NCBI RefSeq assembly: GCF_017876815.1
Contig: NZ_JAGIOS010000002.1
Coordinates: 930,001-962,000, forward strand
Reading direction: 5' to 3'
Source of the DNA: Sinorhizobium meliloti
GTDB taxonomy: Bacteria > Pseudomonadota > Alphaproteobacteria > Rhizobiales > Rhizobiaceae
DNA length: 32,000 bases
Under the pieces are notes generated by a model. It made no database searches, was not told the origin of the DNA, and saw nothing but the letters and a program-made list of their open reading frames with translations. Positions 8,645 through 25,663 of this stretch are shown here, piece after piece. Both the position numbers and the translations under genes were made by a program. Position 1 is the stretch's first letter. Every line of letters starts with the position of its first letter.

Positions 8645-8674
8645 CGCTCTCACCTCCAAGCGCCGCTATTCAGT

Positions 8675-10086: not shown

Positions 10087-10165
10087 GGGCAGCGGCCTTG
10101 GAGGGAGCCGCTGCCCTGGAGCGGGATGAGGAAAATGCGGGCGATGTTCCGCCCGAATCCCGCTC
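10087..10165. repeat. Structured intergenic element: two adjacent GC-rich stem-loops between amidohydrolase A and UbiD
   Basis: Stem 1: GGGCAGCGGC (10087-10096) / GCCGCTGCCC (10107-10116). Stem 2: GAGCGGGAT (10119-10127) / ATCCCGCTC (10157-10165), with a nested CGGGCG (10138-10143) / CGCCCG (10150-10155). No U-tract follows on either strand. Confidence 0.55.
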
Positions 10166-10189
10166 TGACTTTTGGATCGCCAGGGCCGA

Positions 10190-11131: not shown

Positions 11132-11170
11132 GCTATTTCTCCGATTTCATGAAACGCGCGTGCGGAAGGC

Positions 11171-12097: not shown

Positions 12098-12387
12098 CAG
12101 TCTCTCCAGAGTTGCCGTCAATCCAATTCACGGATTGTCCATGAGCGAAGCGCCCCGGAGTTCGACGTCAACTTTGCTGAAGGCGAGGTCAGAAAGATCC
12201 GTCGGGCTGCGGTCTGCGCGATCGCATGTCAGCAATTCCCGACCGGATGTTGTATCGTGAGATACTAACGCGGCTGACCGCTTCTACTGACGTGGAGAAT
12301 ATTAAGACAGCTTAGAGGGAATGAAAAGTACATTTCATCAAACTGATCAATTAATAAATAATTCGAAAGAATTCATTCTGTGAGCGG

Positions 12388-12903
12388 TTGCTCAGCGGAG
12401 TACAGGCATTGGACGACACCGCAAAAGAAAACGCAGAGTTTCCCGCTGCAGCCGGAATCCTCCTCGGCCTCGGTCTCGGGGGCTTCTTCGACGGCATCGT
12501 TCTGCATCAGGTGCTGCAGTGGCATCACATGCTGAGCAGCGCAGGCTTTCCACCGGACAGCCTGGAAAACCTGAGACTGAATACGTTCTTTGACGGCCTC
12601 TTCCATATGGGCACATACGTTTTCGTCGTGCTGGGCCTGATCGTTCTGTGGCGCAGGGGGCGGCGGAGACCCCTGCTTTGGTCGGCAAAGCTTATTGCCG
12701 GTACCTTCCTCATCGGGTTTGGCGGCTTCAACCTGATCGAGGGCACCGTCAACCACCAGATTCTCGGCCTGCATCATGTCAACGAGACCGTGCCGCGCGA
12801 TCAGTGGGTCTACTGGGACACAGGCTTTCTTCTCTGGGGAGCCTTGATGCTGATTGCCGGGTGGGTCCTGTACCGGTCCGGTAAACGAGACCTTTCGAGA
12901 TGA
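12388..12903 (+). CDS. DUF2243-family small integral membrane protein
   Basis: AGILLGLGLGGFFDGIVLHQVLQWHHMLSS is the motif I associate with DUF2243, and several hydrophobic segments follow. The only in-frame starts are TTG (12388 or 12409) with no clear SD, so the start is uncertain. Confidence 0.6.
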   Translation: MLSGVQALDDTAKENAEFPAAAGILLGLGLGGFFDGIVLHQVLQWHHMLSSAGFPPDSLENLRLNTFFDGLFHMGTYVFVVLGLIVLWRRGRRRPLLWSAKLIAGTFLIGFGGFNLIEGTVNHQILGLHHVNETVPRDQWVYWDTGFLLWGALMLIAGWVLYRSGKRDLSR

Positions 12904-12922
12904 ACGGGGTGGGGAACCGCTC

Positions 12923-13804
12923 TCACAGCAGCCGGTGCCGCACCAGAATTTCCCGGATTTTTGCGTCCTGCTCCTCGCTCGGAAGCAGTGCCGGCTGGCG
13001 GGAGGCGCCGACGGAGGGATCCTGCAGGTAGAGCGAGCGCTTGACGAGGGCCGGCGGGAAGCCGAGGGCGTAAAGCTCGGTGCGGAAGGCGGTGTAGATT
13101 GCCTGCTGGCGTTCCGCCTCCGCAATGTTCCCGCTGTTGAACGCGCTGAGAATGCCGGCGAGCACCTCCGGCATGGCGTTGCCGAGGCCGGAAATGCAGC
13201 CGGCCGCACCGTTCTGCAGCGACCAGAGAACCAGATGGTCGGGGCCGGAATAGACTTCGAAGCCCGGCACGTCGCGCGCTACCTGCAGATAGGCGTCGAG
13301 AGTATCCTGCGCACCGCCGGAATCCTTGATCCCGGCGATATTGCCGTGCGCGGAAAGCTTCAACGCCGTCTCCGGCTCGATATGGTTCTGGGTGCGGGAG
13401 GGAATGTCATAGAGATAGACGGGGGTCTCCACGGCATCGGCGACCGTCGAGAAGTGCCGGATCAGGCCGTCCTGCGTACAGGCGATGAAGAAGGGGGTGA
13501 TGACGGCAATGCCGCTGACGCCGATGCGGTCGAAGGCGCGCGCGAGCTGCAGCGTCTCGAAGGTCGCGGGCATGCCGGCATTGACGATGACATCGACGCG
13601 GCCGCCGACCTCGTCGACCACTTCCTCGGTGAGGCGGATCTTCTCCTCGTGCGTGAGCGCGGTGAAGTCGCCATTGGTGCCGGCGCACATGATATTGTTG
13701 CCGGCGGCGACCTGCCGGCGTACCTGGGCGCGGGTCGCCTCGTAATTGATGGTCTCGTCCTCGTTGAAGCAGGTGACGAGGGCGACGAAGGCTTTCTTGG
13801 ACAT
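12923..13804 (-). CDS. DHDPS/NanA-family class I (Schiff-base) lyase/aldolase
   Basis: GTNGDFTALTHEEK, LYDIPSRT and the Schiff-base lysine context AGIKDSGG. The start ATG overlaps the TGA of the upstream ATPase gene (TGATG at 13802-13806). Confidence 0.85.
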   Translation of the reverse strand: MSKKAFVALVTCFNEDETINYEATRAQVRRQVAAGNNIMCAGTNGDFTALTHEEKIRLTEEVVDEVGGRVDVIVNAGMPATFETLQLARAFDRIGVSGIAVITPFFIACTQDGLIRHFSTVADAVETPVYLYDIPSRTQNHIEPETALKLSAHGNIAGIKDSGGAQDTLDAYLQVARDVPGFEVYSGPDHLVLWSLQNGAAGCISGLGNAMPEVLAGILSAFNSGNIAEAERQQAIYTAFRTELYALGFPPALVKRSLYLQDPSVGASRQPALLPSEEQDAKIREILVRHRLL

Positions 13805-15450
13805 CAGTGACTCCGCTTTGGGATAAGAATGTCGGCTGCCTCGGCCGGTACCGATGCGAGGTGGCCGGCCTTTGCATCCGGATCGGGACTGAGGCTGGCG
13901 GCGAGAAGGGCGCGGGTATAGGCCTGCCGCGGCGTATCGAAGACCTCGCGGACGGTGCCGAGCTCGACGACCTCTCCCTGCTGCATGACCATGACGTAAT
14001 CGGCGAAATCGCGAACGACCGGCAGGTCATGGGCGATGAAGATGAAGGCGATCCCCATCTCGCGGCGCAGCCTGTCGAGAAGCTCGATCACCTGCGCCTG
14101 GACGGAGACGTCGAGCGCGGAAACGGCCTCGTCGCAGATGATCAGGTGCGGCTCGAGCGCAAGCGCCCGGGCAATGGCGATGCGCTGCCGCTGGCCGCCG
14201 GAAAACTGGTGCGGATAGCGGCTCATGTGCTCGGCCGAAAGACCGACCTGCACCAGGAGCTCCGCGACGCGTTCACGCCACTTTGCCTTGGGCAGGATGT
14301 CCGGATGGATGACCCATGCCTCGGAGATCAGCTGGTAGACCGTCATGCGCGGGTTGAGCGACTGGGTCGGGTCCTGGAACACCATCTGGAGGTCGCGCCT
14401 GAGCTTGTAGAGCTCTGCCGGCGAAAGCGTGAACAGGTCGCGGCCCTTCCAGAGCGCCGTGCCGCCATCCGGCTCGTCGAGACGCAAAAGGGCACGGGCA
14501 AGCGTCGATTTGCCGGAGCCGCTCTCTCCGACGACAGCCATGGTCTCGCCGGGCATCAGATCGAAGGAGATGCCCTTCAGCGCTTCGAAGGAGCCGTAGG
14601 TCTTGCGCACGTCGCGCACGCTGAGCAGGGGTTCGGCGCGCGCGCCCGGTTCGTGCATCGCGCCCTTGCCCGGGGCGGCGGCGATGAGCTTCTGCGTATA
14701 GGGATGCTGCGGGTTCTTGTAGATCTCGCGCACGGTTCCCGCTTCGACGATGGCGCCCTTTTCCATCACGACGACCCGGTCGGCGATCTCGGAGACGACG
14801 CCGAGATCGTGGGTGATGATCAGCACCGCCATGCCCGTTTCGCGCTGCAGCTCCTTCAGAAGCTTCAGCACTTCGGCCTGCACGGTCACGTCGAGCGCGG
14901 TGGTCGGTTCGTCGGCGATCAGGAGGTCCGGCCGGAGCGCCAGCGCCATGGCGATCATGACGCGCTGGCGCTGACCGCCGGAGAATTCGTGCGGATATTT
15001 GCGCATTGCCCGCTCGGGCTCGGGGATTCCGACGCGGCGAAGGAGCCGCAGCGCCTCTTCGCGCGCCTTGCTGCCGGCGAGCCCGTGAGTTGTCATGGCT
15101 TCGGAGATCTGCCAGCCGACGCTGTAGACCGGATTGAGATGGCTGAGCGGATCCTGAAAGATCATGGCGACCCGGCGGCCGTTGACCTCGCGCCGTTCCT
15201 CGGCAGGCATCGTCAGCAGGTCCCTGCCGTCGAGCAGGATTTCGCCGGCGCTGATGCGGCCCGGCGGCATGTCGATGAGGTTCATGATCGCCGAGGAGGA
15301 GACGGACTTGCCGGAACCGCTTTCGCCGAGGATCGCCAGCGTCTCGCCCTTGTCGAGGTGATAGGAGATCGACTTCACGGCATGGACCACGCCGGCCGCG
15401 GTGTGGAACTCGACGGAGAGGTTACGGACCTCGAGCAGATGTTCAGCCAT
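13804..15450 (-). CDS. ABC transporter ATP-binding protein with two fused NBDs (peptide/opine/nickel PepT type)
   Basis: 548 aa. Contains two Walker A motifs (GESGSGKS twice), two signature motifs (FSGGQRQR twice) and two Walker B motifs. Confidence 0.92.
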
Positions 15451-16366
15451 TTTTGCCGCCCTTCATTTCGAGACGCCAGCGCTGTACCGGATCGAGCGCG
15501 ATCCGCATCCAGTTGGACAGCAGGTTGAGCGACATGGTGGTGAGAATGATGGCAAGGCCGGGCCAGAAGGAGAGCCACCAGGCATTGGTGAGATATTGCC
15601 GGCCCTGCGAGATCATCAGGCCCCAGGTGATTTCCGGCGGCTGGATGCCGATGCCGAGGAAGGACAGCGCGCTCTCCGCCAGCATGACATAGGCGAAATC
15701 AAGCGTGGCGAGCGTCGTCAGCGTCGGCAGCACGACCGGCAGGATGTGGCGGAACAGGATTCGCTTGCTGGAGGCGCCCATGACCCGGGCAGCCTGCACG
15801 AACATGCGCTCGCGGATCTCGAGCACTTCGGCGCGCGTGGTGCGCAGATAGACCGGAATGCGGGTGATGGCGAGCACCAGCATGAGGTTGAGGATCGAGG
15901 AGCCGAGCACATAGAGTACGATCACCGCGATCAGCAGAGACGGGAAGGACATGATCACGTCGGCGAGACGCATGATGATCTGGCTCATGCGTGGCGAGGA
16001 AAAGCCGGCGATGAGGCCGAGAACCGTGCCAATCACCGAGGAGAGGATCACGGCGCCGGCGGCGACCATCAGGGTGTTCTGAGCGGCCACGATGATGCGG
16101 GCGAAAAGCGGACGGCCGAGCGCGTCGGCCCCCATCCACCAGACCCAGGTGCGGGTCCAGTCGAATGGCGGCAGGTTGCGGCCGCGCAGGTTCTGCTTCG
16201 TCGCGAGGTCGCCCAGCCAGGCCGGACCGATGATGGCTATGGTGAGAATGACGAGAAGGAAGATCGCCGCGCAGAGCGCGAACTTGTCCGCCAGCAGCAT
16301 GCGCATCATGCGGACCGGGAAGGACGGCTCTGCGGCGATGACATTGTCGGTGGTTGCCAGGCTCAT
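15443..16366 (-). CDS. ABC transporter permease (DppC/OppC-like)
   Basis: Polytopic protein of the binding-protein-dependent transport family (an EAA-like loop region is visible). I moved the start to ATG 16366 (MSLATTDNV), which has GGAGG 8 nt upstream and lies just after the stop of the upstream permease. Confidence 0.88.
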   Translation of the reverse strand: MSLATTDNVIAAEPSFPVRMMRMLLADKFALCAAIFLLVILTIAIIGPAWLGDLATKQNLRGRNLPPFDWTRTWVWWMGADALGRPLFARIIVAAQNTLMVAAGAVILSSVIGTVLGLIAGFSSPRMSQIIMRLADVIMSFPSLLIAVIVLYVLGSSILNLMLVLAITRIPVYLRTTRAEVLEIRERMFVQAARVMGASSKRILFRHILPVVLPTLTTLATLDFAYVMLAESALSFLGIGIQPPEITWGLMISQGRQYLTNAWWLSFWPGLAIILTTMSLNLLSNWMRIALDPVQRWRLEMKGGKNG

Positions 16367-16379
16367 GGTCGTTGCCTCC

Positions 16380-17294
16380 TCAGTGCCGGATGCGCGGATC
16401 GAGCAGCGCATAGGCGAGGTCGATGAGCACGTTCATGAGGAAGATCGCAATGGCCGTGACGAGAATCGCCGCCAGCACCACGTTGAAATCGCGTTGCAGG
16501 ATGGAATCGATCATGAGCTTGCCGACGCCGGGAAAGCCGAAGATCGTCTCGACCACGACCGCACCGTTCAGCAGGCTCGCCGCCTGGTCGCCGACCACGG
16601 TGATGACGGGCAGCATCGCATTGCGCAGCGCGTGGATGAAGATGATCGGCCCGGACTTCACGCCCTTGGCCCGCGCGGTCTTCACATAGGCCGAGGAAAG
16701 CGCGCTGACCATGGAACCGCGAACCACCTGGACGATGATGCCGAAGGGGCGGACGAAGAGAACCGCGATCGGCAGGATCCAGTGCACGACCGATCCGGTG
16801 CCGGATGTCGGCAGGATCGCGAAGTTGATCGAGAAGATGACGATGGCGACGATCGCCAGCCAGAAATCCGGGACGGACGCACCGATGAGCGAAACCATCG
16901 AGGACAGCCGGTCGAAGAAGCCGCCGGAGCGGAAGGCGCCCAGCGAGCCGACAACGATCGCCGCTCCCGTGACGAGCGTCATCGTGATGACGGCAAGCCA
17001 GAGTGTCCAGGTGAAGGCTTCGAGGACGACATCGAGTGCAGGGCGGGCCTTGCGCAGGGATTCGCCGAGGTCGCCGGTGACGACATCGCCCACATAGCGG
17101 GCGAACTGCACGAGGATCGGATCGTTCAGTCCGTGCAGCTCGCGGAACTGCTCCTTCATCTCGGCGGAGGCTTCGACGGGCAGAAACAGGGCCGCCGGGT
17201 CGCCGGTCATCCGGGACAGGAAGAATACCATGACGATCAGGCCGATGAGCGAGATCAGGCTTGCGAGCGCACGTTGGCGGATGAATCTGAGCAT
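16380..17294 (-). CDS. ABC transporter permease (DppB/OppB-like)
   Basis: MLRFIRQRALASLISLIGLIVMVFFLSRMTGDP is a typical DppB N-terminus. The track ORF 16380..17573 over-extends upstream. Confidence 0.88.
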   Translation of the reverse strand: MLRFIRQRALASLISLIGLIVMVFFLSRMTGDPAALFLPVEASAEMKEQFRELHGLNDPILVQFARYVGDVVTGDLGESLRKARPALDVVLEAFTWTLWLAVITMTLVTGAAIVVGSLGAFRSGGFFDRLSSMVSLIGASVPDFWLAIVAIVIFSINFAILPTSGTGSVVHWILPIAVLFVRPFGIIVQVVRGSMVSALSSAYVKTARAKGVKSGPIIFIHALRNAMLPVITVVGDQAASLLNGAVVVETIFGFPGVGKLMIDSILQRDFNVVLAAILVTAIAIFLMNVLIDLAYALLDPRIRH

Positions 17295-17379
17295 GGCAGC
17301 CCTCGATTTTGCATGAGGCGGCGGGGGTCCCGCCGCCGGAAGGTCTTCATTTCGAATGGCCGCTCGTCCGCGGTTCAGA

Positions 17380-18879
17380 TCATTTGATCTTGATCTCGGA
17401 GAGCTGCAGCATGGAATTCGTCGCCATCGTGGGCTTGAAGTCCAATCGCTCGGACACCCGCGAGAAACCGACCATGTGGAACAGCAGCACGTCTGCCACC
17501 ACCTCGTCATGGACGTAGGCGATGACCTCGGACCAGAGCTTGGCGCGTTCGTCTCCGACGGCAGCCGAGGCACGGGCGATCAGGTCGTCGACCTTCGGAT
17601 CGGAGAAGCCCGACTGCGTGCCTTCGGAGTCGTATTTGAAGAACATCGAGAAGGAGGGATCACCCTTCGAGTTGTCGTGCATCGCGGCAACCAGCTGGGG
17701 ACCGCGCCCTTCCTTGAAGGGCTTCGAGTAATAGACTTCGTGCTCGGCGACTTCTACGAATTTGAGCTCGACCTTGAGTCCGACCTCCTGCAACTGTGCC
17801 TGGATGGCCTCCATGATCTCGGTCACGTTGGGGAAGTTCGCGGTGCGCGCGATGATGGTGATCGGCGTGTCTACCTTGACGCCATCGGCCTTGGCCTCCT
17901 CGATGAGCTTCTTGGCCTGCTCGGGATCGTAGGGGAAGACCTTCACGTCGGGGTTCCAGCCGAGCGTCGGCGGCGGAACGATCGCGGTGGCGAGGACGGC
18001 ACTGTCGGGCACCAGCGTACCGAGGAAGGCTTCGCGGTCGATCGCAAGGTTCAGAGCGCGACGGATGCGGACGTCGTTCAACGGCTCGATATTGTGATCG
18101 ATGCGCAGATAGACGGTCTCGCTGTCGAGATAGGAGAAGTCGGTGGCCGGATTCGTCGCTTCGGTCTGCGAGATGGACGGCGACAGATCGGCTTCGCCCG
18201 TCTGGACCATGGCGGCGCGGACCGCAGGATCGGCGCGGAACAGATAGGTCGCCTCGGTGACCTCGGGCTTTTCGCCCCAGTAGTCGTCCCGGGCGGAAAG
18301 CACGATCTGCTGTCCGGGCGTCCAGTCGGTCAGCTTGTAGGGCCCGGTGCCGACGGGCTCGCGCACGAACTCCATCGACGTCTCTTCCGGCACGATGGTC
18401 AGCAACGACAGGAGCAGCGGCAGGATCGGCTGAACCGGATCGACCGTGAAATCTACGGTCGTGTCGTCGACGACGTCGATCTTAATGTTCATGCCGCCGA
18501 AATAGCGGCGCGACTCGCAGGCATTCTTGTCGCTCATCACGCGGTCGAAGCTGTACTTGACGTCCTTGGCGTTGAAGTCCGTGCCGTCGGAGAACTTCAC
18601 GCCCTTGCGCAGATTGAAGCGCCAGCTGCCATCCTCCTTCTGCTTCCAGCTTTCCGCCAGACGAGGCATCAGGCCCTTGCCCTCGCGAACGTCGAGCTCG
18701 GTCAGAGTCTCGCTGACGTTTTGCATGATGATGCGGCCGATATTCGAGCGCGTGGCCATGCAGGGTTCGAGCAGGTCCGCCTCCTCCGGCAGAACGATCT
18801 TGACCGGCCCGGATGCCGCGAAGGCCGGGGCGAGCGCGGAGCCCAGCATCAGGGCTCCCATAATCAGTGTTCTTTTCAT
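17380..18879 (-). CDS. ABC transporter periplasmic substrate-binding protein, family 5 (DppA/OppA-like)
   Basis: MKRTLIMGALMLGSALAPAFAASGPVKIV is a signal peptide. GGAGG lies 9 nt upstream of ATG 18879, and ATG 18885 is an alternative start. The track ORF extends to 19182 through the AT-rich promoter. Confidence 0.88.
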   Translation of the reverse strand: MKRTLIMGALMLGSALAPAFAASGPVKIVLPEEADLLEPCMATRSNIGRIIMQNVSETLTELDVREGKGLMPRLAESWKQKEDGSWRFNLRKGVKFSDGTDFNAKDVKYSFDRVMSDKNACESRRYFGGMNIKIDVVDDTTVDFTVDPVQPILPLLLSLLTIVPEETSMEFVREPVGTGPYKLTDWTPGQQIVLSARDDYWGEKPEVTEATYLFRADPAVRAAMVQTGEADLSPSISQTEATNPATDFSYLDSETVYLRIDHNIEPLNDVRIRRALNLAIDREAFLGTLVPDSAVLATAIVPPPTLGWNPDVKVFPYDPEQAKKLIEEAKADGVKVDTPITIIARTANFPNVTEIMEAIQAQLQEVGLKVELKFVEVAEHEVYYSKPFKEGRGPQLVAAMHDNSKGDPSFSMFFKYDSEGTQSGFSDPKVDDLIARASAAVGDERAKLWSEVIAYVHDEVVADVLLFHMVGFSRVSERLDFKPTMATNSMLQLSEIKIK

Positions 18880-19199
18880 TTGCATTCTCCTCCCTCTAGG
18901 ATCTCGTGTGTGGCGCGGCGACCTTCGTGCGCCTCGCTCCATGCAGGTATTAGCGGCAATCAGCCTCCTCGCCGCTAAGCGCTCTTCTGCCGCCGAATTG
19001 TCCAGACCATCCGATTTCTCAGCAAGTTTGTCAAATTGTTTTCGCCGATATTCTGGGATGAAAAATTTTGATCTCGAAACTAAGTAACAAAAACAATATG
19101 TTGGTAGCACATACGCCCGGACTTGAACGCGCTGCAGACAAATAGAAAACTTGACAACTTTCGAAATTCCGCGATTGTCCAATGCATGAGGAGGCTTTC

Positions 19200-20387
19200 A
19201 TGACGCCTGACGAAATCGCAAACGCAATGACCGGCAAGCTCCGGGAGGCCGGGGGAGGGCGATTGGAATCGCTCCTGCCCTCGCCCATGGTGCAGAACCA
19301 CGCAGCCTTTCTGCACAGGCTCGAGGACGGAAGTCTCGTCTGTGCCTGGTTCGGTGGGACGCTCGAGGGAAAATCCGACATTTCGATCTTCGCGTCGGTG
19401 CTCGCGCCAGGCGCCGCGCAATGGGGCGAGCCGCAGCGGCTGAGCTTCGATGCCGAGCACTCAGAGCAGAACCCGGTGCTGTTCACGGCGCCCGACGGGC
19501 GGCTCTGGCTTTTCCACACGTCGCAGCCTTCGGGCAACCAGGACGAATGCCGCATCCGTATGGCCGCAATCGAGAGGGATGCCGCTGATCCGACGAGGCT
19601 TGCCGCTTCCGAGGGGCGCTATCTCGACCTGCCGCGCGGCTGCTTTATCCGCGCGCCGCTGGTCATCAGAGATGACGGGGCCTGGCTTCTGCCGATCTTT
19701 CGCTGCATCCAGCGCCCCGGCCAGAAGTGGAACGGCAGCCACGACAATGCGGCCGTCGGCGTCTCGATCGATGGCGGCCGAAGCTGGCAGCTCGCCGATC
19801 TCGACGGCTCGATCGGTTGCGTGCACATGAGCCCGGTGCGCGTCGGCGACACCGGCTACGCCGCTTTCTTCCGCCGCCGCCAAGCGGACCAGGTCTATCG
19901 CGTCGAGAGCGTCGACGGCGGGCGGACGTGGAGCCTGCCGGCGCCGACCGACGTGCCGAACAACAATTCCTCCATCGCGGTCGTCAGGCTCAGGGAAGGC
20001 CGGCTGGCGATGATCTGCAATCCGGTGAATGCGGCCCTTTGGGCCGACCGGCGCGCATCGCTTTACGACGAGCTCGGAGACGACGACGGCCGGCCCGATG
20101 CCGATCCTTCAGGCGGCTGCGTGCCGATCTGGGGCGTGCCGCGGGCGCCGGTGAGCGTCTGCCTGTCGGCCGACGACGGCCGGACCTTCCCCGATCGTAT
20201 CGCGATCGAGGGCGGACCGGGGACCTGCCTTTCCAACAATTCGACCGATGGACACAACAAGGAGATGTCTTATCCGTGGCTCCTGGAAGGGGACGACGGC
20301 AGCCTGCACGTCGCCTACACCTACCATCGGCGGGCAATCAAATATGTCCGTCTGCCGCCCGGGTGGGCCGACGAGGGGAGAAACTGA
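19200..20387 (+). CDS. BNR/Asp-box repeat protein (sialidase-like beta-propeller, BNR_2 type) with no signal peptide
   Basis: Asp-boxes [16 protein letters not shown] and SADDGRTF. N-terminus: [27 protein letters not shown] lies upstream of ATG 19200. The stop overlaps the PdxA start (TGATG). Confidence 0.8.
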
Positions 20388-21352
20388 TGAGCAAGATTAT
20401 CGGCATCACCATGGGCGATCCCTGTGGCGTCGGACCGGAGATCACGGTCCGATCGCTTGCTGAGATGTCGGCTGCTGACCGGGAGGCGACCCGTATCTAC
20501 GGCAACCTCGCGACGCTCGAGGCTGCAAGGGAGGCGCTTGGTCTCTCGGTCGATCTTCAGCCCTATGTCGTCGACCTTACGGTCGAGGGCGCGCCGCTCC
20601 CCTGGGGTAGCCTTTCGGCAGTGGCAGGCGACGCAGCCTTCCGGTTCATCGAGCGCGCGGTACGCGATGCCGAGGCCGGCAACATCGGCTGCATCGTCAC
20701 GGCGCCGATCAACAAGGAAGCACTCAATATGGCAGGCCACCATTACGACGGCCATACCGGCATGCTGCGCAGCCTGACCGGATCGAGCGCCGCCTATATG
20801 CTGCTTGCCTCCGAGCGCCTCAAGGTCATTCACGTCTCGACCCATGTGTCGCTCAAGGAGGCGATCGGCCGCGCCACCACCGAGCGGGTCCTTGCCACGA
20901 TCCGCGCCGGCAACGCGCACCTGAAGCGCATCGGCTACGAGCACCCGCGCATCGCGGTCGCCGGCATCAACCCGCATTGCGGCGAGAACGGCCTGTTCGG
21001 CACGGAAGACGATGATCAGATCGGGCCTGCGGTGGCGGCCGCGCGTGAAGAAGGCATCGACGTGCAGGGGCCGATCTCTGCCGATACCGTGTTCCATCGC
21101 GCCTATTCGGGAGGCTTCGATCTGGTCGTCGCGCAATATCACGACCAGGGTCATATCCCGATCAAGCTGGTCGCCTTCGATACGGCGGTCAACGTATCCG
21201 TAGATCTTCCGATCGACCGCACCTCCGTCGATCACGGGACTGCCTTCGATATTGCCGGAAAGGGTATCGCCAATCACGGCAACCTGAATTCCGCGATCGC
21301 CTATGCGCGCAAGCTCGTGGCCGGTCAGGCAAGCAGAAAGGCAGCGTCATGA
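20387..21352 (+). CDS. PdxA-family NAD-dependent 4-phospho-hydroxyacid dehydrogenase (PdxA2-like)
   Basis: [19 protein letters not shown]... and the HYDGHTGML and [12 protein letters not shown] motifs are typical of PdxA. This is an internal start within track ORF 19727..21352. Confidence 0.88.
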
Positions 21353-22455
21353 TTACGATCCATCAGCCGCGCCGGCTCGTCGTCGGCGCCGGAAGCCGCG
21401 GCGAAGTCGGCGCGTGGGCCGGTCAGGCCGGCTCCACCCTGGTCATTGCGACGCCGGTCACGTCCGGCTTTGCCGACAGCCTGAAGCTCTCGGGCAAGGT
21501 CACCTTATTCGACGCCATCCCCGGCGAACCGGATATCACGACGCTCGAGGCGGCGCTTGAAGCCGCGCGGAACGCTCGCCCGGATCTGATCGTCGGTCTT
21601 GGCGGCGGCTCGGTGATGGATGTAGCCAAGCTGGTCGCGGTACTCTGGGACTCCGGGCAATCGCTCGCCGATGTCGCCGGACCCAATCGCGTGGCCGGCC
21701 GCAACACGCGCCTTGCGCAGGTCGCGACGACCGCCGGCACGGGTTCTGAGGCCGGGATCCGTTCGCTGATCACCGACCCGAGCAAGGGCAGCAAGATCGC
21801 GGTCGAAAGCCCGCACATGATCGCCGACCTCGCCGTGCTCGATCCGGAACTCACCTACAGCGTGCCGCCTGCGGTCACCGCGGCGACCGGCGTGGATGCC
21901 ATGGCCCATTGCGTCGAGGCCTTCACCAACCGCAAAGCCCATACGATGATCGACGGCTTCGCCCGCATGGGGTTCAACCTCGTCGGCAAATATCTCGCCC
22001 GTGCCGTGCGCGACGGCGAAGATACCGAGGCGCGCGAGGGCATGATGCTGGCTTCCTATTACGGCGGCATATGCCTCGGCCCCGTCAACACGGCGGCCGG
22101 GCACGCCATCTCCTATCCGCTCGGCACGCTCTTGCATCTGCCGCACGGTCTCGCCAATGCGATCATCTTTCCGCATGTGCTCGCCTTCAACCAGCCGTCC
22201 GCTGCGGCAAAGACGGCGGAAGTCGCGGATGCCCTCGGGCTCGGGCAGGGTCTCTCGCAACGTGATCTGCTGTCGGCCGCGAAAGATTTCTGTGCCGGCC
22301 TCGGCATAGAGATGTCTCTGGCCGCCAATGGCGCGACGGCGGCCGACCTGCCGCGCTTTGCCGCGGATGCGCATGCGATCCGGCGGCTGATGGACAACAA
22401 TCCGGTCGACATGAGCGAGGCCGATGTGCTGGAGATCTACCGGGCAGCGTTCTAA
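21349..22455 (+). CDS. Iron-containing (group III) alcohol dehydrogenase
   Basis: [10 protein letters not shown] nucleotide loop, with His ligand contexts [10 protein letters not shown] and [10 protein letters not shown]. The start overlaps the PdxA stop (ATGA). Confidence 0.88.
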
Positions 22456-22494
22456 GGCCTGTTGAGATACGGGATACCCGCCGCGGCTTGTTGA

Positions 22495-22530
22495 TCTCCT
22501 CATCCCTGTGTTCGTCACAGGGATCCAGCC
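22495..22530. repeat. Palindromic intergenic repeat (ATCCCTGTG-N5-CACAGGGAT), probably a dispersed Rhizobiales repeat and/or a bidirectional terminator hairpin
   Basis: 9-bp arms at 22502-22510 and 22516-22524, between the convergent Fe-ADH and GntR genes. From memory, the surrounding string CTCATCCCTGTG..CACAGGGATCCAGC resembles a repeat common in Rhizobium/Agrobacterium intergenic DNA. Confidence 0.5.
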
Positions 22531-22557
22531 AGACCAAGTCGGGGCGGGGTCCTGCCT

Positions 22558-23259
22558 CTACTGCGAGGCCAGGAACAGGCGGTCGCGCGATCCGGTAAGG
22601 TGCTTCAGCATCAGCATCCGGGCCTCTTCGGCACTGCCGGCGGCGATGGCATCGGCAATCGCCTCGTGCTCGGCGAAAACCCTGGAGAGGCCGCTTGCCT
22701 CGCGCTTCACCGAGATGCCATGGAACTTCATGCCCACGGCGATGTGCTCCTTCAACGCCTCCATGGCAGTCGAGAAGTAGCTGTTCTGGGCCGCACGGGC
22801 GATCGCAAGATGGAACTGGAAGTCGGCATCCTCCCGGTGGGACTGCCGGTTGGTGGCGTCGCGCAGCAGTTCGAGTGCCCGGCGGATCGATGCGAGGCTC
22901 GTCTCGTCGTGCCGGAGGGCTGCCGCGGCTGCGGCTGCGGGTTCCAGCGTCAGGCGGAATTCATAGCAGTTCAGGAGATCGGCGACGTTTTCCAGTTGAC
23001 CGAAGCCGAGCGGCTCGCGAAGGCCCACGGCTCTCACGAAACTGCCCGCGCCACGCCGGGAATAGATGAGCCCCTGGTCCCGGAGGCGCTTCAGCGCCTC
23101 CCGGACGATCGGCCGGGATACCTCGAACTCCGTCGCCAGCTCATGCTCCGTCGGCAGACGCTCGTCCGGCTTGTAGGCGCCGGACTTGATCGCGCGGTGC
23201 ATCCTTTCGAACACGATGTCGGGCAGGCCCTTGCGGGGGGTCCCTTCCTGCAGTCCCAT
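22558..23259 (-). CDS. GntR-family transcriptional regulator, FadR subfamily
   Basis: ERLPTEHELATEFEVSRPIVREALKRLRDQGLIYSRRGAGSFV is the wHTH, followed by a helical FCD-type C-terminal domain. It lies 3 nt downstream of the kinase gene on the same strand. Confidence 0.9.
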   Translation of the reverse strand: MGLQEGTPRKGLPDIVFERMHRAIKSGAYKPDERLPTEHELATEFEVSRPIVREALKRLRDQGLIYSRRGAGSFVRAVGLREPLGFGQLENVADLLNCYEFRLTLEPAAAAAAALRHDETSLASIRRALELLRDATNRQSHREDADFQFHLAIARAAQNSYFSTAMEALKEHIAVGMKFHGISVKREASGLSRVFAEHEAIADAIAAGSAEEARMLMLKHLTGSRDRLFLASQ

Positions 23260-23262
23260 CGT

Positions 23263-24294
23263 CTATCTCGCCTCCCCCATTATCTGCCTTGCGATGTCGC
23301 TCAACGTGTCCGGCCCGCCGAAGCCGCCGGACTTGGTGATGATATAGCGGCCATCGGCAAAGGCCAGCGCGATCCCGGGCACGCATTCGCCGAAAAGGCG
23401 GAATCGGGAAACGCCCATCCTCTCCAGCACTGCCTCGGCTGTCGCACCACCTGTAAGAAGCAGGGTCGCGGCCCCGCCGGTGAACGCCGGAACGACGCTG
23501 TCGGCCAGGTTGGCGGAGACTTCGGCCGGGCCGAGCGGCGTTTCGCCCTCGATCGCCTGAATGATGGTCACCGTCCCGGTTGCGGGGGCGCTGGGCTGCT
23601 GCACCCTGCCTCCGGCCGCCGGGACATATTCGGTGGAATGGTTTTCCCGCAGCACGTCGACCTGCTCGACCGTGATCGGGTCGCGCGATCCGACGACGAT
23701 CAGTATAGGTTGCCGGGGCAGCGGTATCGGCGGCAGCGTTTCCCTATCGGTCATCCGATGGGCAAGTGCATCGGCAAGCCCTCTAGCGCCGATCATGAGG
23801 TCGCAGCCGGCCGTCTCGGCGCTTGCCAAGGCGGCGAGCATGTCTTTGCGAGACATGGTGTCGGGGATCAATGTCCGTTCCGCATGTCTGCCGAGCCTTT
23901 CGGCGACCGGGATCGGCGCGTCCACGCCAAACCCCCGGACATGACCAGCGACCACGATGCGGCCGAAATCGGGGATAGCCGGCGCGACGAGCGCGCGGGC
24001 AAAAGGGGTGGCGTCGAGTTCAGCTTCGATATTGCCCTTCAGCCGCGAGTCGACCTTCTTGAAAATCCGCGCATTTTCCGGGACGTGCTTCAGAACGTCG
24101 GATGTCGCCTTGCGCGCCTCATCCGCGGAAACCTCGCGGGATTTCACGTTGACGACGAGAATGTCCGGTCCGTCCGCCAGTGCAGCATCCATGGAGTCCA
24201 GCGCGAGAGCGACTTCCGTGCGAAGGCCGTGGCCCGCAAACGGGGCGGCTGAATCAAGAGCACCCGTCAGATCATCGGCGAGAATCACAAGCAT
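23263..24294 (-). CDS. DUF1537-family four-carbon acid-sugar kinase (OtnK/DtnK/DenK family)
   Basis: MLVILADDLTGALDSAAPFA N-terminal motif and the C-terminal LLLTGGATAEAV and ITKSGGFG motifs. ATG 24294 is preferred, with TTG 24309 as an alternative. Confidence 0.85.
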   Translation of the reverse strand: MLVILADDLTGALDSAAPFAGHGLRTEVALALDSMDAALADGPDILVVNVKSREVSADEARKATSDVLKHVPENARIFKKVDSRLKGNIEAELDATPFARALVAPAIPDFGRIVVAGHVRGFGVDAPIPVAERLGRHAERTLIPDTMSRKDMLAALASAETAGCDLMIGARGLADALAHRMTDRETLPPIPLPRQPILIVVGSRDPITVEQVDVLRENHSTEYVPAAGGRVQQPSAPATGTVTIIQAIEGETPLGPAEVSANLADSVVPAFTGGAATLLLTGGATAEAVLERMGVSRFRLFGECVPGIALAFADGRYIITKSGGFGGPDTLSDIARQIMGEAR

Positions 24295-24360
24295 GGGGAG
24301 ACGCTGCAAATCCGATTGTTGTTATCTTACGTGCTGAATTTTCTACATGTATTGCAAGGA

Positions 24361-24382
24361 TTTGCAAATTTAAATTTACAAA
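24361..24382. promoter_or_regulatory. 22-bp near-perfect palindrome TTTGCAAATTT/AAATTTACAAA; candidate operator upstream of the kinase-GntR operon
   Basis: 10 of 11 positions are symmetric. It lies 67-88 nt upstream of kinase ATG 24294 in an AT-rich patch. A partial direct copy, ATTGCAAGG, lies just upstream at 24351-24359. Confidence 0.5.
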
Positions 24383-24499
24383 TGTGCAGGGAAAAGGCTT
24401 CGTGCACATCCGGACGGAATGCCGTCACGCGGCTGGCGCATTCACGCGTTGACGGCTATATTAGCCCGTGCGTAAACTTCATCCGAAACGGGAGAAGTC

Positions 24500-24709
24500 A
24501 TGGAGCCGGTGACGCTCGTACTGACCGTATGCCTTGCGACGGCACCAGAAAAGTGCCGGGAGGAACCGCTGCAGTTTCAGGACCTGAGGTCGTTGAATCA
24601 ATGCATGTTCCAGTCTGCGGTGTACATCGCCGAATGGTCCGAGCAGCATCCGGCGCTTCGCGTCAAGAAGTGGCGATGCAGGGTTGCGGATGCGAGCCGC
24701 CCCGTCTGA
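24500..24709 (+). CDS. Hypothetical small Cys-containing protein (69 aa)
   Basis: GGGAGAAG SD 5 nt upstream of the ATG. Third-position GC looks like that of the neighbouring genes. MEPVTLVLTVCLATAPEKCREE has a hydrophobic N-terminus, and there are 4 Cys in total. A bulged 8-bp hairpin (24710-24730) follows the stop. I recognise no family. Confidence 0.45.
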   Translation: MEPVTLVLTVCLATAPEKCREEPLQFQDLRSLNQCMFQSAVYIAEWSEQHPALRVKKWRCRVADASRPV

Positions 24710-24929
24710 GTTCCTGGGCACGCCCGGAACGAGGCGCTTGAATCTCGTAGGCGTATCGCCGACAGTGTAGTGTCGCAAAATCTCGGAATTGCCCGGGGTG
24801 GAAAACTGTGCGACAACGATTCGCGTCGTGCTGGGGAGAGTACGACGGCCTGGGAGAGAGATATTCTCGGTGAACTCGGAGTGGCTTTGAGTCGCTCTGT
24901 TGGCTTGGAAGTATCTCGGGAGGAGAGCC

Positions 24930-25619
24930 ATGCCGCGGACAGCCTTGCCCGTTCATTCGCTTTCGATAAAGTCGGCCCTGGTGATCGATGATCATCCGCT
25001 CTATTGCGATGCTCTGGCCGCGACGATGGAAAGCACCTTCAATACGCGCCGGATCAGAACGGCGACGTCGTTGAGCGAAGCGTTGCAGCAGCTCAGGATG
25101 CGCTTCTCGCCCGATCTGATCATGCTGGATCTGAACCTGCCCGATGCGTCCGGGTTAAGCGGTTTTCTGAAAATCAAGGAAAAGATGCCCGATATTCCGG
25201 TCATCGTGATCTCCGCCTTCACGTCGAAGGACGTGGTTCAGTCGGTCATCGCCGCCGGTGCCGCGGGGTTCATCCCCAAGGATATCGACCGTCATAATTT
25301 CCAGGAAGCGATGCAGGATATCTGGAACGGCAAGACCTATGTGCCGCCGGGCTACGCGGTACCGGCGCGCGCGACGGCCACGGACCAGTCGGTGGAGACG
25401 ATCTCGCGCAAGATCGCCCATCTGTCGCAGCAGCAGACCCGCATTCTGAGCCTGATCTGCGAAGGCATGCCGAACAAGCTGATCGCCTACGAGATGCAGC
25501 TGGCCGAGGCGACCGTCAAGGCGCATATCACAGCGCTTCTGCGCCGGCTGGGCGTCCACAATCGCACCCAGGCGGCGATGCTGGTACGCGAAGTATCGAT
25601 CCGCCACAGCCTGCAGTGA
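24930..25619 (+). CDS. LuxR/FixJ-family response regulator (REC plus LuxR HTH), ErbR/AgmR-like by context
   Basis: REC domain: ALVIDDHPLY...DLIMLDLNLPDASG...VIVISA. HTH: LSQQQTRILSLICEGMPNKLIAYEMQLAEATVKAHITALLRRLGVHNRTQA. GGGAGGAG lies upstream of ATG 24930. Confidence 0.9.
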   Translation: MPRTALPVHSLSIKSALVIDDHPLYCDALAATMESTFNTRRIRTATSLSEALQQLRMRFSPDLIMLDLNLPDASGLSGFLKIKEKMPDIPVIVISAFTSKDVVQSVIAAGAAGFIPKDIDRHNFQEAMQDIWNGKTYVPPGYAVPARATATDQSVETISRKIAHLSQQQTRILSLICEGMPNKLIAYEMQLAEATVKAHITALLRRLGVHNRTQAAMLVREVSIRHSLQ

Positions 25620-25663
25620 GGTGTGCCCGGCCTGCCGGGATGGGAGTTGGAGGGTGACGGTGC

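Follow-up and report, generated by a model that had tools for sequence, protein, structure and literature searches.

A block of ten genes in three operons occupies positions 12923-24294 of the window (the whole 32,000-nucleotide stretch of Sinorhizobium meliloti DNA analyzed here), which belongs to the pSymB megaplasmid and is 100% identical to pSymB of S. meliloti SM11. One minus-strand operon comprises an SBP_bac_5 ABC importer and a DHDPS-family lyase; a plus-strand operon carries BNR_2, PdxA and Fe-ADH genes with overlapping stops and starts; and a third, on the minus strand, encodes a DUF1537 kinase and a GntR/FCD regulator. The features, as predicted from the evidence given in brackets, are:

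12923-13804, minus strand: DapA-like class I (Schiff-base) pyruvate aldolase of the DHDPS family (Pfam DHDPS, E 5e-54)
13804-15450, minus strand: fused double ATPase of a PepT-type (peptide/opine/nickel, TC 3.A.1.5) ABC importer (Pfam, two ABC_tran plus oligo_HPY)
15443-16366, minus strand: ABC permease, DppC/OppC type (Pfam BPD_transp_1 and OppC_N)
16380-17294, minus strand: ABC permease, DppB/OppB type (Pfam BPD_transp_1 and BPD_transp_1_N)
17380-18879, minus strand: periplasmic family-5 substrate-binding protein (Pfam SBP_bac_5, E 7e-86)
18880-19199, no strand: divergent control region with TTGWCAA boxes (comparison of orthologous intergenic regions)
19200-20387, plus strand: BNR_2 protein, cytoplasmic, six-bladed sialidase fold (Pfam BNR_2, E 2e-60)
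20387-21352, plus strand: PdxA2-clade NAD-dependent oxidative decarboxylase (Pfam PdxA, E 2e-98)
21349-22455, plus strand: group III iron-dependent alcohol dehydrogenase (Pfam Fe-ADH and ADH_Fe_C)
22504-22522, no strand: hairpin CCCTGTG-TTCGT-CACAGGG in the convergent Fe-ADH/GntR gap (read from sequence)
22558-23259, minus strand: FadR-type (FCD) GntR-family regulator (Pfam GntR and FCD)
23263-24294, minus strand: short DUF1537-family acid-sugar kinase, 343 aa (Pfam SBD_N 90 bits, NBD_C 59 bits)
24295-24400, no strand: kinase-GntR promoter region (boxes compared across orthologous regions)

All genes listed in a first-pass annotation of this DNA were recovered in place by Pfam, and the overlaps it had described were borne out when the junctions were read directly. 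The ATPase stop and DHDPS start overlap by 1 nt (cTGATGt), coupling the last two genes of the importer operon, and the preceding permease gene (15443-16366) runs 8 nt into the ATPase gene. BNR and PdxA share 1 nt (TGATG) and PdxA and Fe-ADH 4 nt (ATGA), while 3 nt separate the kinase stop from the GntR start. Front-end and back-end genes are therefore translationally coupled, both as BNR-PdxA-Fe-ADH and as ATPase-DHDPS. The BNR start is most likely 19200, with GAGGAGG 6 nt upstream; the first ATG, at 19182, is disfavored. The kinase-GntR operon is present as annotated, with its strand corrected to minus: it converges on the BNR operon, and the hairpin lying between the two is likely a terminator.

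The GntR regulator has NanR, LldR and PdhR as its top NCBIfam names, all far under cut-off. Two TTGWCAA boxes, at 19028-19034 and 19151-19157, lie 123 bp apart in the divergent control region; exactly two are found in 47/50 orthologous divergent intergenic regions, and ACTTGACA occurs in 50/50. The kinase-GntR promoter region contains TGTTGTTATCTT at 24317-24328 and the related boxes ATTTGCAAAT and ATTTACAAAT at 24360-24383. Of 64 orthologous promoter regions, 30 contain GATAACAA, which matches part of the box in reverse complement, and 17 the exact TTGWCAA core, with degenerate copies in most others. Judged from this sequence comparison, the two TTGWCAA boxes of the divergent control region are the likely operators of the GntR/FCD regulator.

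The importer ATPase (548 aa) holds both ABC_tran domains in one protein, with GsiA and YejF as top NCBIfam names, both under cut-off. The substrate-binding protein carries a Sec signal peptide (MKRTLIMGALMLGSALAPAFAASG), and its gene is probably SMb20144 of strain 1021, a tag mapping that we infer. Its nearest PDB relatives are 5u4o and DppA (150-170 bits), followed by AccA (119 bits) and Haemophilus ducreyi SatA (5z99, 77 bits). SAT-type sialic-acid importers, which the first-pass annotation placed in the peptide/opine family, do have an SBP_bac_5 member as their binding protein (PMC8461474).

The BNR protein lacks a signal peptide. Its AlphaFold model (pLDDT 93.6) has GH33 sialidases as best PDB folds (TM 0.67-0.69, 11-16% identity), while a single-sequence search of the PDB returned no match and a profile search gave weak sialidase matches only. 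Because it has neither the RIP arginine of sialidases nor their conserved catalytic Glu, any glycosidase activity is putative.

Placing the lyase in the DHDPS family held up, and the NanA-like part of that assignment gave way to a DapA-like one: the best NCBIfam model is DapA (191.6 bits vs a cut-off of 206), and NanA models reach only 84-109 bits where 281-382 would be needed. The protein contains the motifs GTNGD, TPFF, YLYDIPSRT and GIKDSGG. It thus keeps the Arg of YDIPSRT, which in DapA (R138 of the Escherichia coli enzyme) binds the carboxylate group of aspartate semialdehyde, a C4 aldehydo-acid. NanK, NanE, NagA and NagB were not found in the block with Pfam or NCBIfam. A Nan cluster was accordingly rejected, with NanA models so far under cut-off and neither NanK nor NanE present; the label "Nan-like" suits how the front end may work, not its cluster membership.

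Among the back-end enzymes, PdxA matches 4jqp (292 bits), Salmonella PdxA2 (2hi1, 277 bits) and D-threonate 4-phosphate dehydrogenase (6e85, 271 bits), compared with 164 bits for E. coli PLP-pathway PdxA; by sequence score it is far nearer the PdxA2/D-threonate 4-phosphate dehydrogenases. It passes the general TIGR00557 PdxA model (344 vs 290) and falls under the NCBIfam equivalog cut-off (303 vs 583). The nearest named relatives of Fe-ADH are lactaldehyde reductase and methanol and 4-hydroxybutyrate dehydrogenases, all under cut-off. Both kinase domains exceed their Pfam cut-offs, and the motifs ADDLTGA, KKVDSRLKG, GGATA and KSGGFG are retained; among NCBIfam models D-threonate kinase scores best (131 bits vs an equivalog cut-off of 450), and the best PDB match is 4xfm (60 bits). 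At 343 aa the kinase is unusually short (about 400-425 aa elsewhere), and no gene of the block evolves faster (median 54% identity vs 75-88% for the others).

Conservation was counted over 63 genome loci having full 10-kb flanks. BNR, PdxA, Fe-ADH and kinase occur together in 60/63, and all ten orthologues in unchanged order in 43/63, whereas the window's own flanking genes are missing from all loci but one; the flanks differ in Agrobacterium and Phyllobacterium as well. The first-pass annotation had named two refuting cases, correspondence to a known pathway and lack of co-conservation of the three operons. Neither was borne out: our literature search brought up no matching pathway, and the operons proved to travel as one block among unrelated flanks. 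The ten genes are one co-inherited unit. In 11 alpha- and gammaproteobacterial loci the aldolase is swapped for a 24-29% identical DHDPS paralogue located between PdxA and Fe-ADH, and in locus L073 the aldolase orthologue sits inside a TctCBA tricarboxylate-type transporter operon.

Distant lineages, four in addition to the above, have the enzyme set as well; BNR there is only 35-45% identical, and importer types are swapped (TRAP, TTT, MFS). Locus L089 (73% GC) encodes a PepT ABC importer, BNR, DeoR, PdxA, full-length DUF1537, an aldo-keto reductase and an HpcH/HpaI aldolase; aldolase and reductase are both replaced by unrelated analogues there, HpcH for DHDPS and aldo-keto reductase for Fe-ADH. 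This HpcH enzyme is nearest 2-dehydro-3-deoxygalactarate and 4-hydroxy-2-oxoheptanedioate aldolases, which split a keto-deoxy diacid into pyruvate and an aldehydo-acid. L092 (34% GC) and L096 (46% GC) combine kinase, Fe-ADH, PdxA, DHDPS and BNR with a TRAP transporter; SDR genes adjoin BNR in both, the TRAP binding protein of L092 resembles sialic-acid-binding SiaP most closely, and the L096 lyase is 60% identical to that of the window. Regulators differ as well: instead of GntR, L089 has DeoR, and both L092 and L096 have sigma-54 activators. A fungal contig holds BNR, DHDPS, PdxA, an aldo-keto reductase and an MFS transporter, with no kinase within 19 kb. Functional roles are conserved, beyond the genes themselves. 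The transporters found across lineages (SiaP-like TRAP, SatA-type ABC, TTT and MFS) are types that carry monomeric acid sugars, suggesting a monomeric substrate; a larger glycosidic conjugate, as originally proposed, is therefore possible and not required.

That an ulosonic-type front end is joined to a C4 kinase/PdxA2 back end in a single pathway is very probable, in line with the earlier proposal, given the BNR-PdxA coupling, the paralogue insertion in 11 loci and the recurrence in four lineages. The best explanation for the ten genes is a single GntR-controlled catabolic module for imported 3-deoxy-2-heptulosaric acid. By our reasoning, only a 3-deoxy-hept-2-ulosaric acid, once cleaved by an aldolase and with the resulting aldehyde reduced, would yield a tetronate open to conversion into DHAP by DUF1537 kinase and PdxA2. 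The best candidate, Dha (3-deoxy-D-lyxo-heptulosaric acid), is a rare, acid-labile seven-carbon sugar of side-chain D of plant rhamnogalacturonan II (RG-II); it is a minor sugar, a point counted against it as the substrate. A Fischer projection drawn by hand suggests that its D-lyxo configuration would give D-threonate, a known substrate of the PdxA2 route. The Araf-Dha side chain leaves RG-II on brief heating, and rhizosphere organisms consume RG-II sugars freed by Flavobacteria (bioRxiv 10.64898/2026.03.13.711244).

In the proposed pathway, the family-5 binding protein-dependent ABC importer would take up Dha, free or as a small glycoside. The cytoplasmic BNR_2 protein would ready it for the aldolase by removing a glycosyl partner (ketosidase) or by opening or anomerizing the pyranose ring, the least certain role of the scheme. 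The DapA-like enzyme, acting as an ulosaric-acid aldolase, would cleave C3-C4 to give pyruvate and the four-carbon aldehydo-acid D-threuronate (2,3-dihydroxy-4-oxobutanoate), whose aldehyde Fe-ADH would reduce to D-threonate. The short DUF1537 protein, as a D-threonate 4-kinase, would form 4-phospho-D-threonate, and the PdxA2-clade enzyme would oxidatively decarboxylate it to DHAP and CO2. The net conversion would be C7 to pyruvate, DHAP and CO2, with one reduced nicotinamide used, one NADH made and one ATP spent. Dha as the exact substrate, with the steps in this order, is a plausible but tentative assignment. The DapA-type Arg is missing from the alternative DHDPS clades of other loci, and the kinase-less fungal cluster better fits a non-phosphorylative order, both of which count against it, as do the kinase and PdxA scores under the equivalog cut-offs, the short and fast-evolving kinase, and the residues missing from BNR; none of the neighborhoods showed a connection with pectin or RG-II genes.

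An unlikely variant keeps a Dha-type heptulosaric acid and places PdxA first, oxidatively decarboxylating the C7 end of the unphosphorylated diacid to 2,5-diketo-3-deoxy-hexonate. Fe-ADH or aldo-keto reductase would then form 2-keto-3-deoxy-gluconate or -galactonate, the DUF1537 kinase would phosphorylate C6, and the DHDPS/HpcH aldolase would release pyruvate and glyceraldehyde 3-phosphate. Every enzyme has a use in this order, and the C7-C6-C5 arrangement of Dha is D-threo, as in D-threonate. The fungal cluster would suit a version without phosphorylation, comparable to the galacturonate route of fungi; the SDR genes beside BNR in TRAP-type clusters are of the diketone-reducing kind, and one PdxA-family member, terephthalate dihydrodiol dehydrogenase (4aty), uses an unphosphorylated substrate. 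However, PdxA lies nearer the phospho-threonate dehydrogenases than 4aty by a factor of about two, and Fe-ADH is similar to aldehyde reductases (FucO and the methanol and 4-hydroxybutyrate dehydrogenases), with glycerol-dehydrogenase-type ketoreductases scoring just 25 bits. New chemistry would also be needed for three enzymes, whereas the aldolase-first order reuses the known D-threonate module.

Somewhat less likely still is another ulosonic acid or its glycoside (examples are Kdn, bacterial nonulosonic acids, and Kdo of either RG-II or rhizobial K-antigen origin), with BNR a true ketosidase and the C4 module handling a fragment from unforeseen chemistry. The sialidase fold, the SiaP-like binding protein and the SatA-type importer speak for it, as does the report that Kdo freed from RG-II is consumed by soil organisms through an unknown pathway (bioRxiv 10.64898/2026.03.13.711244). 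Aldol cleavage of these compounds, however, gives D-arabinose (Kdo) or hexoses (Kdn, sialic acids), which need an aldehyde dehydrogenase and chain shortening before kinase and PdxA2; no such genes are encoded, and NanK, NanE, NagA and NagB are all absent.

It is improbable that the peptide-type importer delivers an amino-diacid or opine-like compound for retro-DapA cleavage to pyruvate and a hydroxylated aspartate semialdehyde, followed by reduction to 4-hydroxythreonine, its phosphorylation and the classical PdxA reaction. The near-cut-off DapA score, the retained semialdehyde-carboxylate Arg, the pass of TIGR00557 and an importer family that carries peptides and opines are all consistent with this route, but its product, aminoacetone phosphate, is no catabolic entry point, PdxA is closer to PdxA2, the block conserves no aminotransferase or deaminase, and the sialidase fold, SiaP-like TRAP and HpcH variants all indicate sugar acids. 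A chance juxtaposition of a plain D-threonate/D-erythronate set (kinase, PdxA2, regulator) with an unrelated peptide or acid importer and its own lyase is strongly disfavored: each part has stand-alone precedents, and D-threonate catabolism needs no more than DUF1537 and PdxA2 (Zhang et al. 2016, as cited in PMC12994016), but the block is kept where its flanks are not, BNR is coupled to PdxA, a DHDPS paralogue has entered the PdxA-Fe-ADH interval in 11 loci, and four other lineages have put the full set together anew, using other transporters and regulators and non-homologous enzymes.

The first-pass annotation could match the locus to no described route, and our literature search likewise found no matching pathway, no published route of Dha catabolism and no experiment on any protein of the ten-gene block. 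If the Dha pathway is correct, these genes would constitute one conserved pathway for degrading a rare acid sugar of the plant cell wall, by a route that is apparently undescribed.

The ten genes of the module are arranged in three operons, and every gene named by the first-pass annotation was recovered in the ORF listing and Pfam scan:

12923–13804, minus strand: DHDPS-family lyase (Pfam DHDPS), in the same operon as the importer
13804–15450, minus strand: fused double ATPase, 548 aa (two ABC_tran domains with oligo_HPY)
15443–16366, minus strand: Opp/Dpp-type permease (BPD_transp_1 with OppC_N)
16380–17294, minus strand: Opp/Dpp-type permease (BPD_transp_1 and BPD_transp_1_N)
17380–18879, minus strand: family-5 binding protein (SBP) with signal peptide (SBP_bac_5, Pfam)
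19200–20387, plus strand: BNR_2 sialidase-fold protein (BNR), first gene of the divergent operon
20387–21352, plus strand: PdxA, second gene of the BNR operon
21349–22455, plus strand: Fe-ADH, third gene of the BNR operon
22558–23259, minus strand: GntR/FCD regulator, in the same operon as the kinase
23263–24294, minus strand: DUF1537 kinase, 343 aa, in an operon convergent with the BNR operon

Junctions read directly from the sequence comprise TGATG, ATGA and an 8-nt overlap, and BNR is taken to start at 19200 on account of a GAGGAGG site. Fe-ADH and GntR, which converge, are separated by a hairpin with a perfect 7-bp stem (22504–22522, CCCTGTG-TTCGT-CACAGGG), probably the terminator common to both operons. 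The window is part of S. meliloti pSymB. Its region 12900–24400 is 100% identical to strain SM11, and identity to the remaining S. meliloti and S. kummerowiae megaplasmids listed is 98–100%. Judging from published tags, the module probably corresponds to SMb20140–20149 of strain 1021. SMb20144, probably the SBP gene (17380–18879), appears in an hfq-mutant transcriptome study as a down-regulated ABC transporter gene of the class "other organic acids/alcohols", for which that study cites Mauchline et al. 2006 (PMC2848018); an acid-shift study places smb20141 and smb20142 among nitrogen-metabolism genes (PMC2651895).

The ten genes recur in identical order between wholly different neighbours in Agrobacterium tumefaciens-complex and Phyllobacterium genomes. 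A genome scan with the BNR alignment, taking one genome per species, yielded 80 loci in Rhizobiaceae, Phyllobacterium, Labrys, Hoeflea, several Rhodobacteraceae genera including Paracoccus, and Halomonas. When the ten window proteins were searched by tblastn in the 63 loci with full 10-kb flanks, BNR, PdxA, Fe-ADH and kinase were retained together in 60 and all ten orthologues in 43; the genes that flank the module in the window (UbiD/UbiX, two amidohydrolases, DUF2243, response regulator, FIST) were missing from those loci except in one Ensifer MAG. The three operons are thus co-conserved, a point on which the first-pass annotation had made its hybrid reading depend, and the ten genes are one unit. 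The kinase is the least conserved member (median identity 54% across loci L002–L085 vs 75–88% for the other nine). Two TTGWCAA boxes ~122 bp apart occupy the divergent intergenic region in 47 of 50 loci, and related boxes lie upstream of the kinase–GntR operon, an arrangement that fits a single predicted FadR-type regulator.

A separate set of genes precedes the module (792–12121; names from the PGAP annotation of identical DNA). It comprises a GntR regulator, M, 2Fe-2S and Mo subunits of the xanthine-dehydrogenase family, a CobW-like GTPase in which 13 residues (not shown) form a His-rich stretch, a nucleobase-type permease ORF, UbiX, UbiD and two amidohydrolases that share 72% identity. This set looks like a heteroaromatic-acid catabolic cluster, and it does not travel with the module, except partly in one related locus (L019). 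Downstream (24501–29073) lie a small hypothetical ORF (24501–24710), a response-regulator transcription factor (~24930–25619), a FIST-domain protein (25664–26833) and a long ORF with histidine-kinase-like sequence (26653–29073); the first three, which were those tested, were not conserved beside the module in other genomes.

Distant BNR representatives (35–45% identity) were then considered in unrelated genomes, where four neighbourhoods were informative:

L089 (GC 73%): PepT ABC importer, BNR, DeoR, PdxA, full-length DUF1537, aldo-keto reductase, HpcH/HpaI aldolase
L092 (GC 34%): sigma-54 activator, DUF1537, Fe-ADH, PdxA, DHDPS, SDR, BNR, DctPQM
L096 (GC 46%): gene set as in L092, with TRAP transporter
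L088 (fungal contig): BNR, DHDPS, PdxA, MFS, aldo-keto reductase, fungal transcription factors

Five roles co-travel, namely sialidase-fold protein, pyruvate aldolase, carbonyl reductase, DUF1537 kinase and PdxA, while transporters, regulators and even enzyme folds are swapped between lineages. The constancy of these roles argues strongly for a single pathway and for assigning the functions "aldolase" and "reductase". The earlier idea of acid-sugar front and back ends joined in one pathway is thereby sustained, the five roles being re-assembled in distant lineages. The DHDPS protein of L096 is 60% identical to that of the window, the BNR just 36%. On the two fungal contigs (L088 and L091), BNR homologues 40–45% identical to the window protein lack a signal peptide and lie near DHDPS, PdxA, MFS or sugar transporter and aldo-keto reductase genes, as well as flavocytochrome b2-like genes (Cyt-b5 and FMN_dh); none of the genes seen within 19 kb was a DUF1537. 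An SDR gene, absent from the window, directly precedes BNR in both TRAP clusters (L092:7109–7855; L096:9216–9977), and L096 has a second SDR after the lyase (16444–17247). The neighbours of five isolated BNR homologues (L071, L074, L075, L093 and L097) were uninformative, and no neighbourhood examined contained pectin or RG-II hydrolase genes.

Variation also occurs among closer relatives. Eleven loci (L049, L050, L051, L059, L062, L064, L065, L070, L079, L080 and L082) have no lyase orthologue closing the importer operon; a DHDPS paralogue, 24–29% identical, sits between PdxA and Fe-ADH instead (~12100–13060 in each). Loci of this type belong to several Rhodobacteraceae, Rhizobium cremeum, Ciceribacter, two Agrobacterium lineages and Halomonas. 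In the loci inspected for this (L049, L060 and L079), a similar-sized ORF stands upstream of the SBP gene; in L049 it encodes an EamA-family membrane protein (Pfam). In Phaeovulum (L073, 13262–18093), TctC-TctB-TctA, a transporter type for di- and tricarboxylates, is followed by the lyase orthologue and a D-2-hydroxyacid dehydrogenase. L085 likewise places a D-isomer-specific 2-hydroxyacid dehydrogenase after the lyase orthologue (512–2754); BNR, ABC importer and an Fe-ADH-like gene are present there, and PdxA and kinase are absent. The arrangement in these two loci suggests a variant lower pathway. In four Paracoccus/Falsirhodobacter loci (L063, L066, L067 and L069), SBP and lyase lie beside the BNR operon with no permease or ATPase genes nearby, so the membrane components would have to be encoded elsewhere or shared. 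One of these loci, L063, is from Paracoccus litorisediminis NBRC 112902, a strain with which a 2026 study examined a different C4/C5/C6 sugar-acid cluster (PMC12994016).

The lyase had been described as NanA/DHDPS-family. Its DHDPS affiliation stood, with the Pfam domain spanning 284 of 289 profile positions; the NanA affiliation did not, DapA being the best model (TIGR00674, 191.6 bits vs a 206.15 cut-off), followed by the DHDPS-type HpaI model TIGR02313, with the NanA models far below threshold (NF003164, 109 bits vs 281; TIGR00683, 84 bits vs 382). The motifs GIKDS (Lys) and YLYDIP (Tyr) are common to the window, L073 and L096 lyases, which places the enzyme in the DHDPS/NAL class I aldolase superfamily, with a predicted TIM barrel and Schiff-base Lys and Tyr. 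It reads YDIPSRT rather than YNIPxxSG, the NanA-type motif. A true DapA was rejected, given the sub-threshold equivalog score, the proton-relay motifs (GTNGD and TPFF where true DapA has GTTGE and TPYY) and the location of the gene in a catabolic operon. The arginine of YDIPSRT is missing from the alternative DHDPS clades, which weakens it as a general sign of a carboxylated aldehyde; the DapA-type arginine regained some weight because the DapA-like type is so well conserved in the distant L096. The HpcH aldolase of L089 is closest to 2-dehydro-3-deoxygalactarate aldolase and 4-hydroxy-2-oxoheptanedioate aldolase. Fe-ADH is a generic group III enzyme whose closest relatives are aldehyde reductases.

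The kinase combines the N-terminal sugar-binding and C-terminal nucleotide-binding domains of DUF1537 (SBD_N, 90 bits, cut-off 25; NBD_C, 59 bits, cut-off 28.3), and the family motifs are invariant in seven homologues; its domains place it in this family, and its fold was judged from the motifs. Its best NCBIfam model is that of D-threonate kinase (DtnK; NF047819), at 131 bits against an equivalog cut-off of 450 that was not reached. It is 60–80 residues shorter than its counterparts in L089, L092 and L096, with the motifs retained. PdxA likewise scores below the NF002891 equivalog cut-off (303 vs 583). Its 271–292 bits to the PdxA2/D-threonate 4-phosphate dehydrogenases 6e85, 2hi1 and 4jqp, vs 164 to E. 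coli PdxA, place it by similarity in the PdxA2 clade, nearer characterised PdxA2 than the PLP-pathway enzyme.

BNR lacks a signal peptide, and its model (pLDDT 93.6) is a six-bladed propeller. The closest solved folds are GH33 sialidases (TM about 0.68 and 11–16% identity for the nearest; TM 0.6–0.69 over the top 40 PDB fold matches), and there are three Asp-box-like motifs (SADDGRTF, with 16 further residues not shown); BNR is therefore modelled as a six-bladed β-propeller with Asp-boxes and a GH33-type fold. A single-sequence PDB search gave no match. Profile search returned weak sialidase matches in which Arg225 and Tyr358 fall opposite sialidase residues. BNR does not conserve the Glu of the sialidase "VEL" strand and has N-H-A at the N-terminal RIP position, where the His (His34) is invariant. 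BNR is matched at E ≤ 1e-10 by about 1,000 cluster representatives. The importer, with SBP_bac_5, OppB/C-type permeases and ATPases bearing an oligo_HPY region (Pfam), has the makeup of a peptide/opine/nickel ABC importer (PepT, TC 3.A.1.5). Its SBP scores 150–170 bits to DppA and 5u4o vs 77 bits to SatA (5yyb, 5z99, 5za4), so orthology to Haemophilus ducreyi SatA did not hold. The TRAP binding protein of L092 is closest to SiaP.

The substrate and reaction order that follow are inferred from the genes present, their family affinities and the stereochemistry. The DUF1537/PdxA2 pair would turn a tetronate into DHAP. The aldolase and aldehyde reductase must supply that tetronate, so the aldolase product would be a four-carbon aldehydo-acid and its substrate a 3-deoxy-hept-2-ulosaric acid. 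The only such sugar known to us as a polysaccharide constituent is 3-deoxy-D-lyxo-heptulosaric acid (Dha), the side chain D sugar of rhamnogalacturonan II (RG-II), which also occurs in prasinophyte scales. A Fischer projection drawn by hand gives L, L, R for C4, C5 and C6 of Dha, as in Kdo. Cleavage of Dha would give D-threuronate, and reduction D-threonate, which matches the D-threonate affinity of PdxA and kinase. The lyase would mirror DapA, which joins pyruvate to a C4 aldehydo-acid, and Fe-ADH would act on such an acid like 4-hydroxybutyrate dehydrogenase, itself an Fe-ADH. The transporters across module lineages (SatA-type ABC, SiaP-like TRAP, TTT and MFS) parallel the range for monomeric sialic acid (SBP_bac_5 ABC, DctP TRAP and MFS; PMC8461474), so the substrate may be free Dha. 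This leaves two putative functions for BNR. One is that of a ketosidase or arabinofuranosidase acting on small Dha glycosides; the other is that of an anomerase/ring-opening helper of the aldolase, analogous to NanM and YhcH, the anomerase-type helpers of sialic acid catabolism. Brief heating frees the Araf-Dha side chain from RG-II, according to a preprint (bioRxiv 10.64898/2026.03.13.711244).

The most serious rival to this aldolase-first order begins with PdxA, which would attack free Dha at its D-threo C7 end; ketoreduction, phosphorylation and KD(P)G-type cleavage would follow. It accounts for the kinase-less fungal cluster (L088) and for the SDR genes of the TRAP clusters (L092 and L096), but needs new specificities in three enzymes. 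An amino-diacid converted to 4-hydroxythreonine is chemically possible, but the route ends in a dead-end product. Kdo or nonulosonic acids as substrate would suit the front end only; Kdo was rejected, since its aldolase product, D-arabinose, could not be taken on by the PdxA2 step. Also rejected were products of L-threonate or ascorbate type, whose use depends on LtnD, OtnI and OtnC, none of which is encoded. That two systems are adjacent by chance is effectively excluded and was rejected.

With the aldolase-first order, the locus can be compared with known systems. Conversion of a tetronate to DHAP by DUF1537/PdxA2 is established chemistry, DtnK and PdxA2 forming the D-threonate module (Zhang et al. 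2016, PNAS; cited as reference 13 in PMC12994016). As there, the two protein families adjoin in one regulon, with DHAP as predicted end product; here, however, kinase and PdxA fall below the equivalog cut-offs, the kinase is shorter, and the pair is never alone but joined to importer, sialidase-fold protein, pyruvate aldolase and aldehyde reductase. This would make D-threonate an intermediate within the pathway rather than a growth substrate. Nan clusters (SatABCD, SiaPQM or NanT with NanA) share import of a 2-keto-3-deoxy acid sugar, its Schiff-base cleavage by a DHDPS-family enzyme to pyruvate and an aldehyde, the transporter-type spread, a sialidase-fold protein and a FadR-type GntR regulator; they also carry sialidase and anomerase accessories. 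In contrast, the lyase here is DapA-like, the sialidase-fold protein is cytoplasmic and without the RIP motif, and the proposed aldehyde is a C4 aldehydo-acid, reduced and phosphorylated, where nan clusters yield an N-acetylhexosamine. A Nan cluster proper was rejected, the NanA models not being reached and NanK and NanE being absent; domains of NanK, NanE, NagA and NagB were found in none of the ten genes and were not conserved in the 80 related loci.

The glucarate/galactarate system likewise combines aldolase (GarL), tartronate semialdehyde reductase (GarR) and kinase (GarK) on a keto-deoxy diacid, starting from a C6 diacid, and HpaI cleaves a C7 diacid, 4-hydroxy-2-oxoheptanedioate, to pyruvate and succinate semialdehyde in the homoprotocatechuate pathway. 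The L089 HpcH aldolase that substitutes for DHDPS is closest to these enzymes. The proposed substrate, however, is one carbon longer than glucarate-derived KDG, so PdxA2 decarboxylation would be needed to reach triose phosphate, and it is dihydroxylated relative to the HpaI substrate. D-apiose pathways use a DUF1537-family kinase, an oxidoisomerase and RuBisCO-like enzymes. D-apiose/D-apionate routes resemble the module in a rare sugar typical of RG-II, in the DUF1537-family kinase and in their occurrence in plant- or alga-associated Alphaproteobacteria. They differ in the branched pentose and in oxidoisomerase and RuBisCO-like chemistry (ApnO, OiaK and OiaX; cited as reference 53 in PMC12994016), and have no aldolase, PdxA or sialidase-fold protein. 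BT1020 of the Bacteroides thetaiotaomicron RG-II degradome targets the same proposed Dha in the Araf-Dha side chain (bioRxiv 10.64898/2026.03.13.711244), but is a periplasmic GH143 Dha hydrolase fused to a GH142 β-L-arabinofuranosidase, of unrelated folds; the degradome releases Dha, and its description includes no downstream Dha catabolism. If our reading is true, the module would be the missing cytoplasmic part of Dha use. By analogy, then, the locus resembles a nan cluster fused to a D-threonate module, with Gar-like logic in the middle.

In the literature searched, neither this gene set nor a Dha catabolic route was found described, and no known pathway matched the locus, in agreement with the first-pass annotation, which could match it to no described route. 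The acid-sugar pathway may be new, assembled from known families, and the activity of the BNR_2 protein may be new as well. We tentatively propose, at somewhat less than even likelihood, that the locus is the first Dha catabolic pathway, conserved from Alphaproteobacteria to high- and low-GC bacteria and fungi, with BNR as a new class of sialidase-fold enzyme and with D-threonate supplied to the DUF1537/PdxA2 module. Such an enzyme might act as a ketosidase, its active site having been re-wired, or as an anomerase/ring-opening enzyme of ulosaric acids. To our knowledge, a physiological source of D-threonate has been the missing piece for the DUF1537/PdxA2 module, and we know of no established route of Dha biosynthesis in plants.

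Little is known of what becomes of RG-II rare sugars after release; according to a 2026 preprint, the pathways that deal with several of the products freed from RG-II have yet to be confirmed (bioRxiv 10.64898/2026.03.13.711244). Our proposal offers a complete route by which a C7 diacid would yield pyruvate, DHAP and CO2, with importer and regulator named in S. meliloti and A. tumefaciens, both genetic model organisms. If true, it would provide a function for a widespread sialidase-fold subfamily and a physiological role for the DUF1537/PdxA2 module, and the Dha aldolase would be useful in making or assaying Dha. Even with another substrate, the strict co-inheritance of five roles across kingdoms would mark an undescribed acid-sugar pathway.
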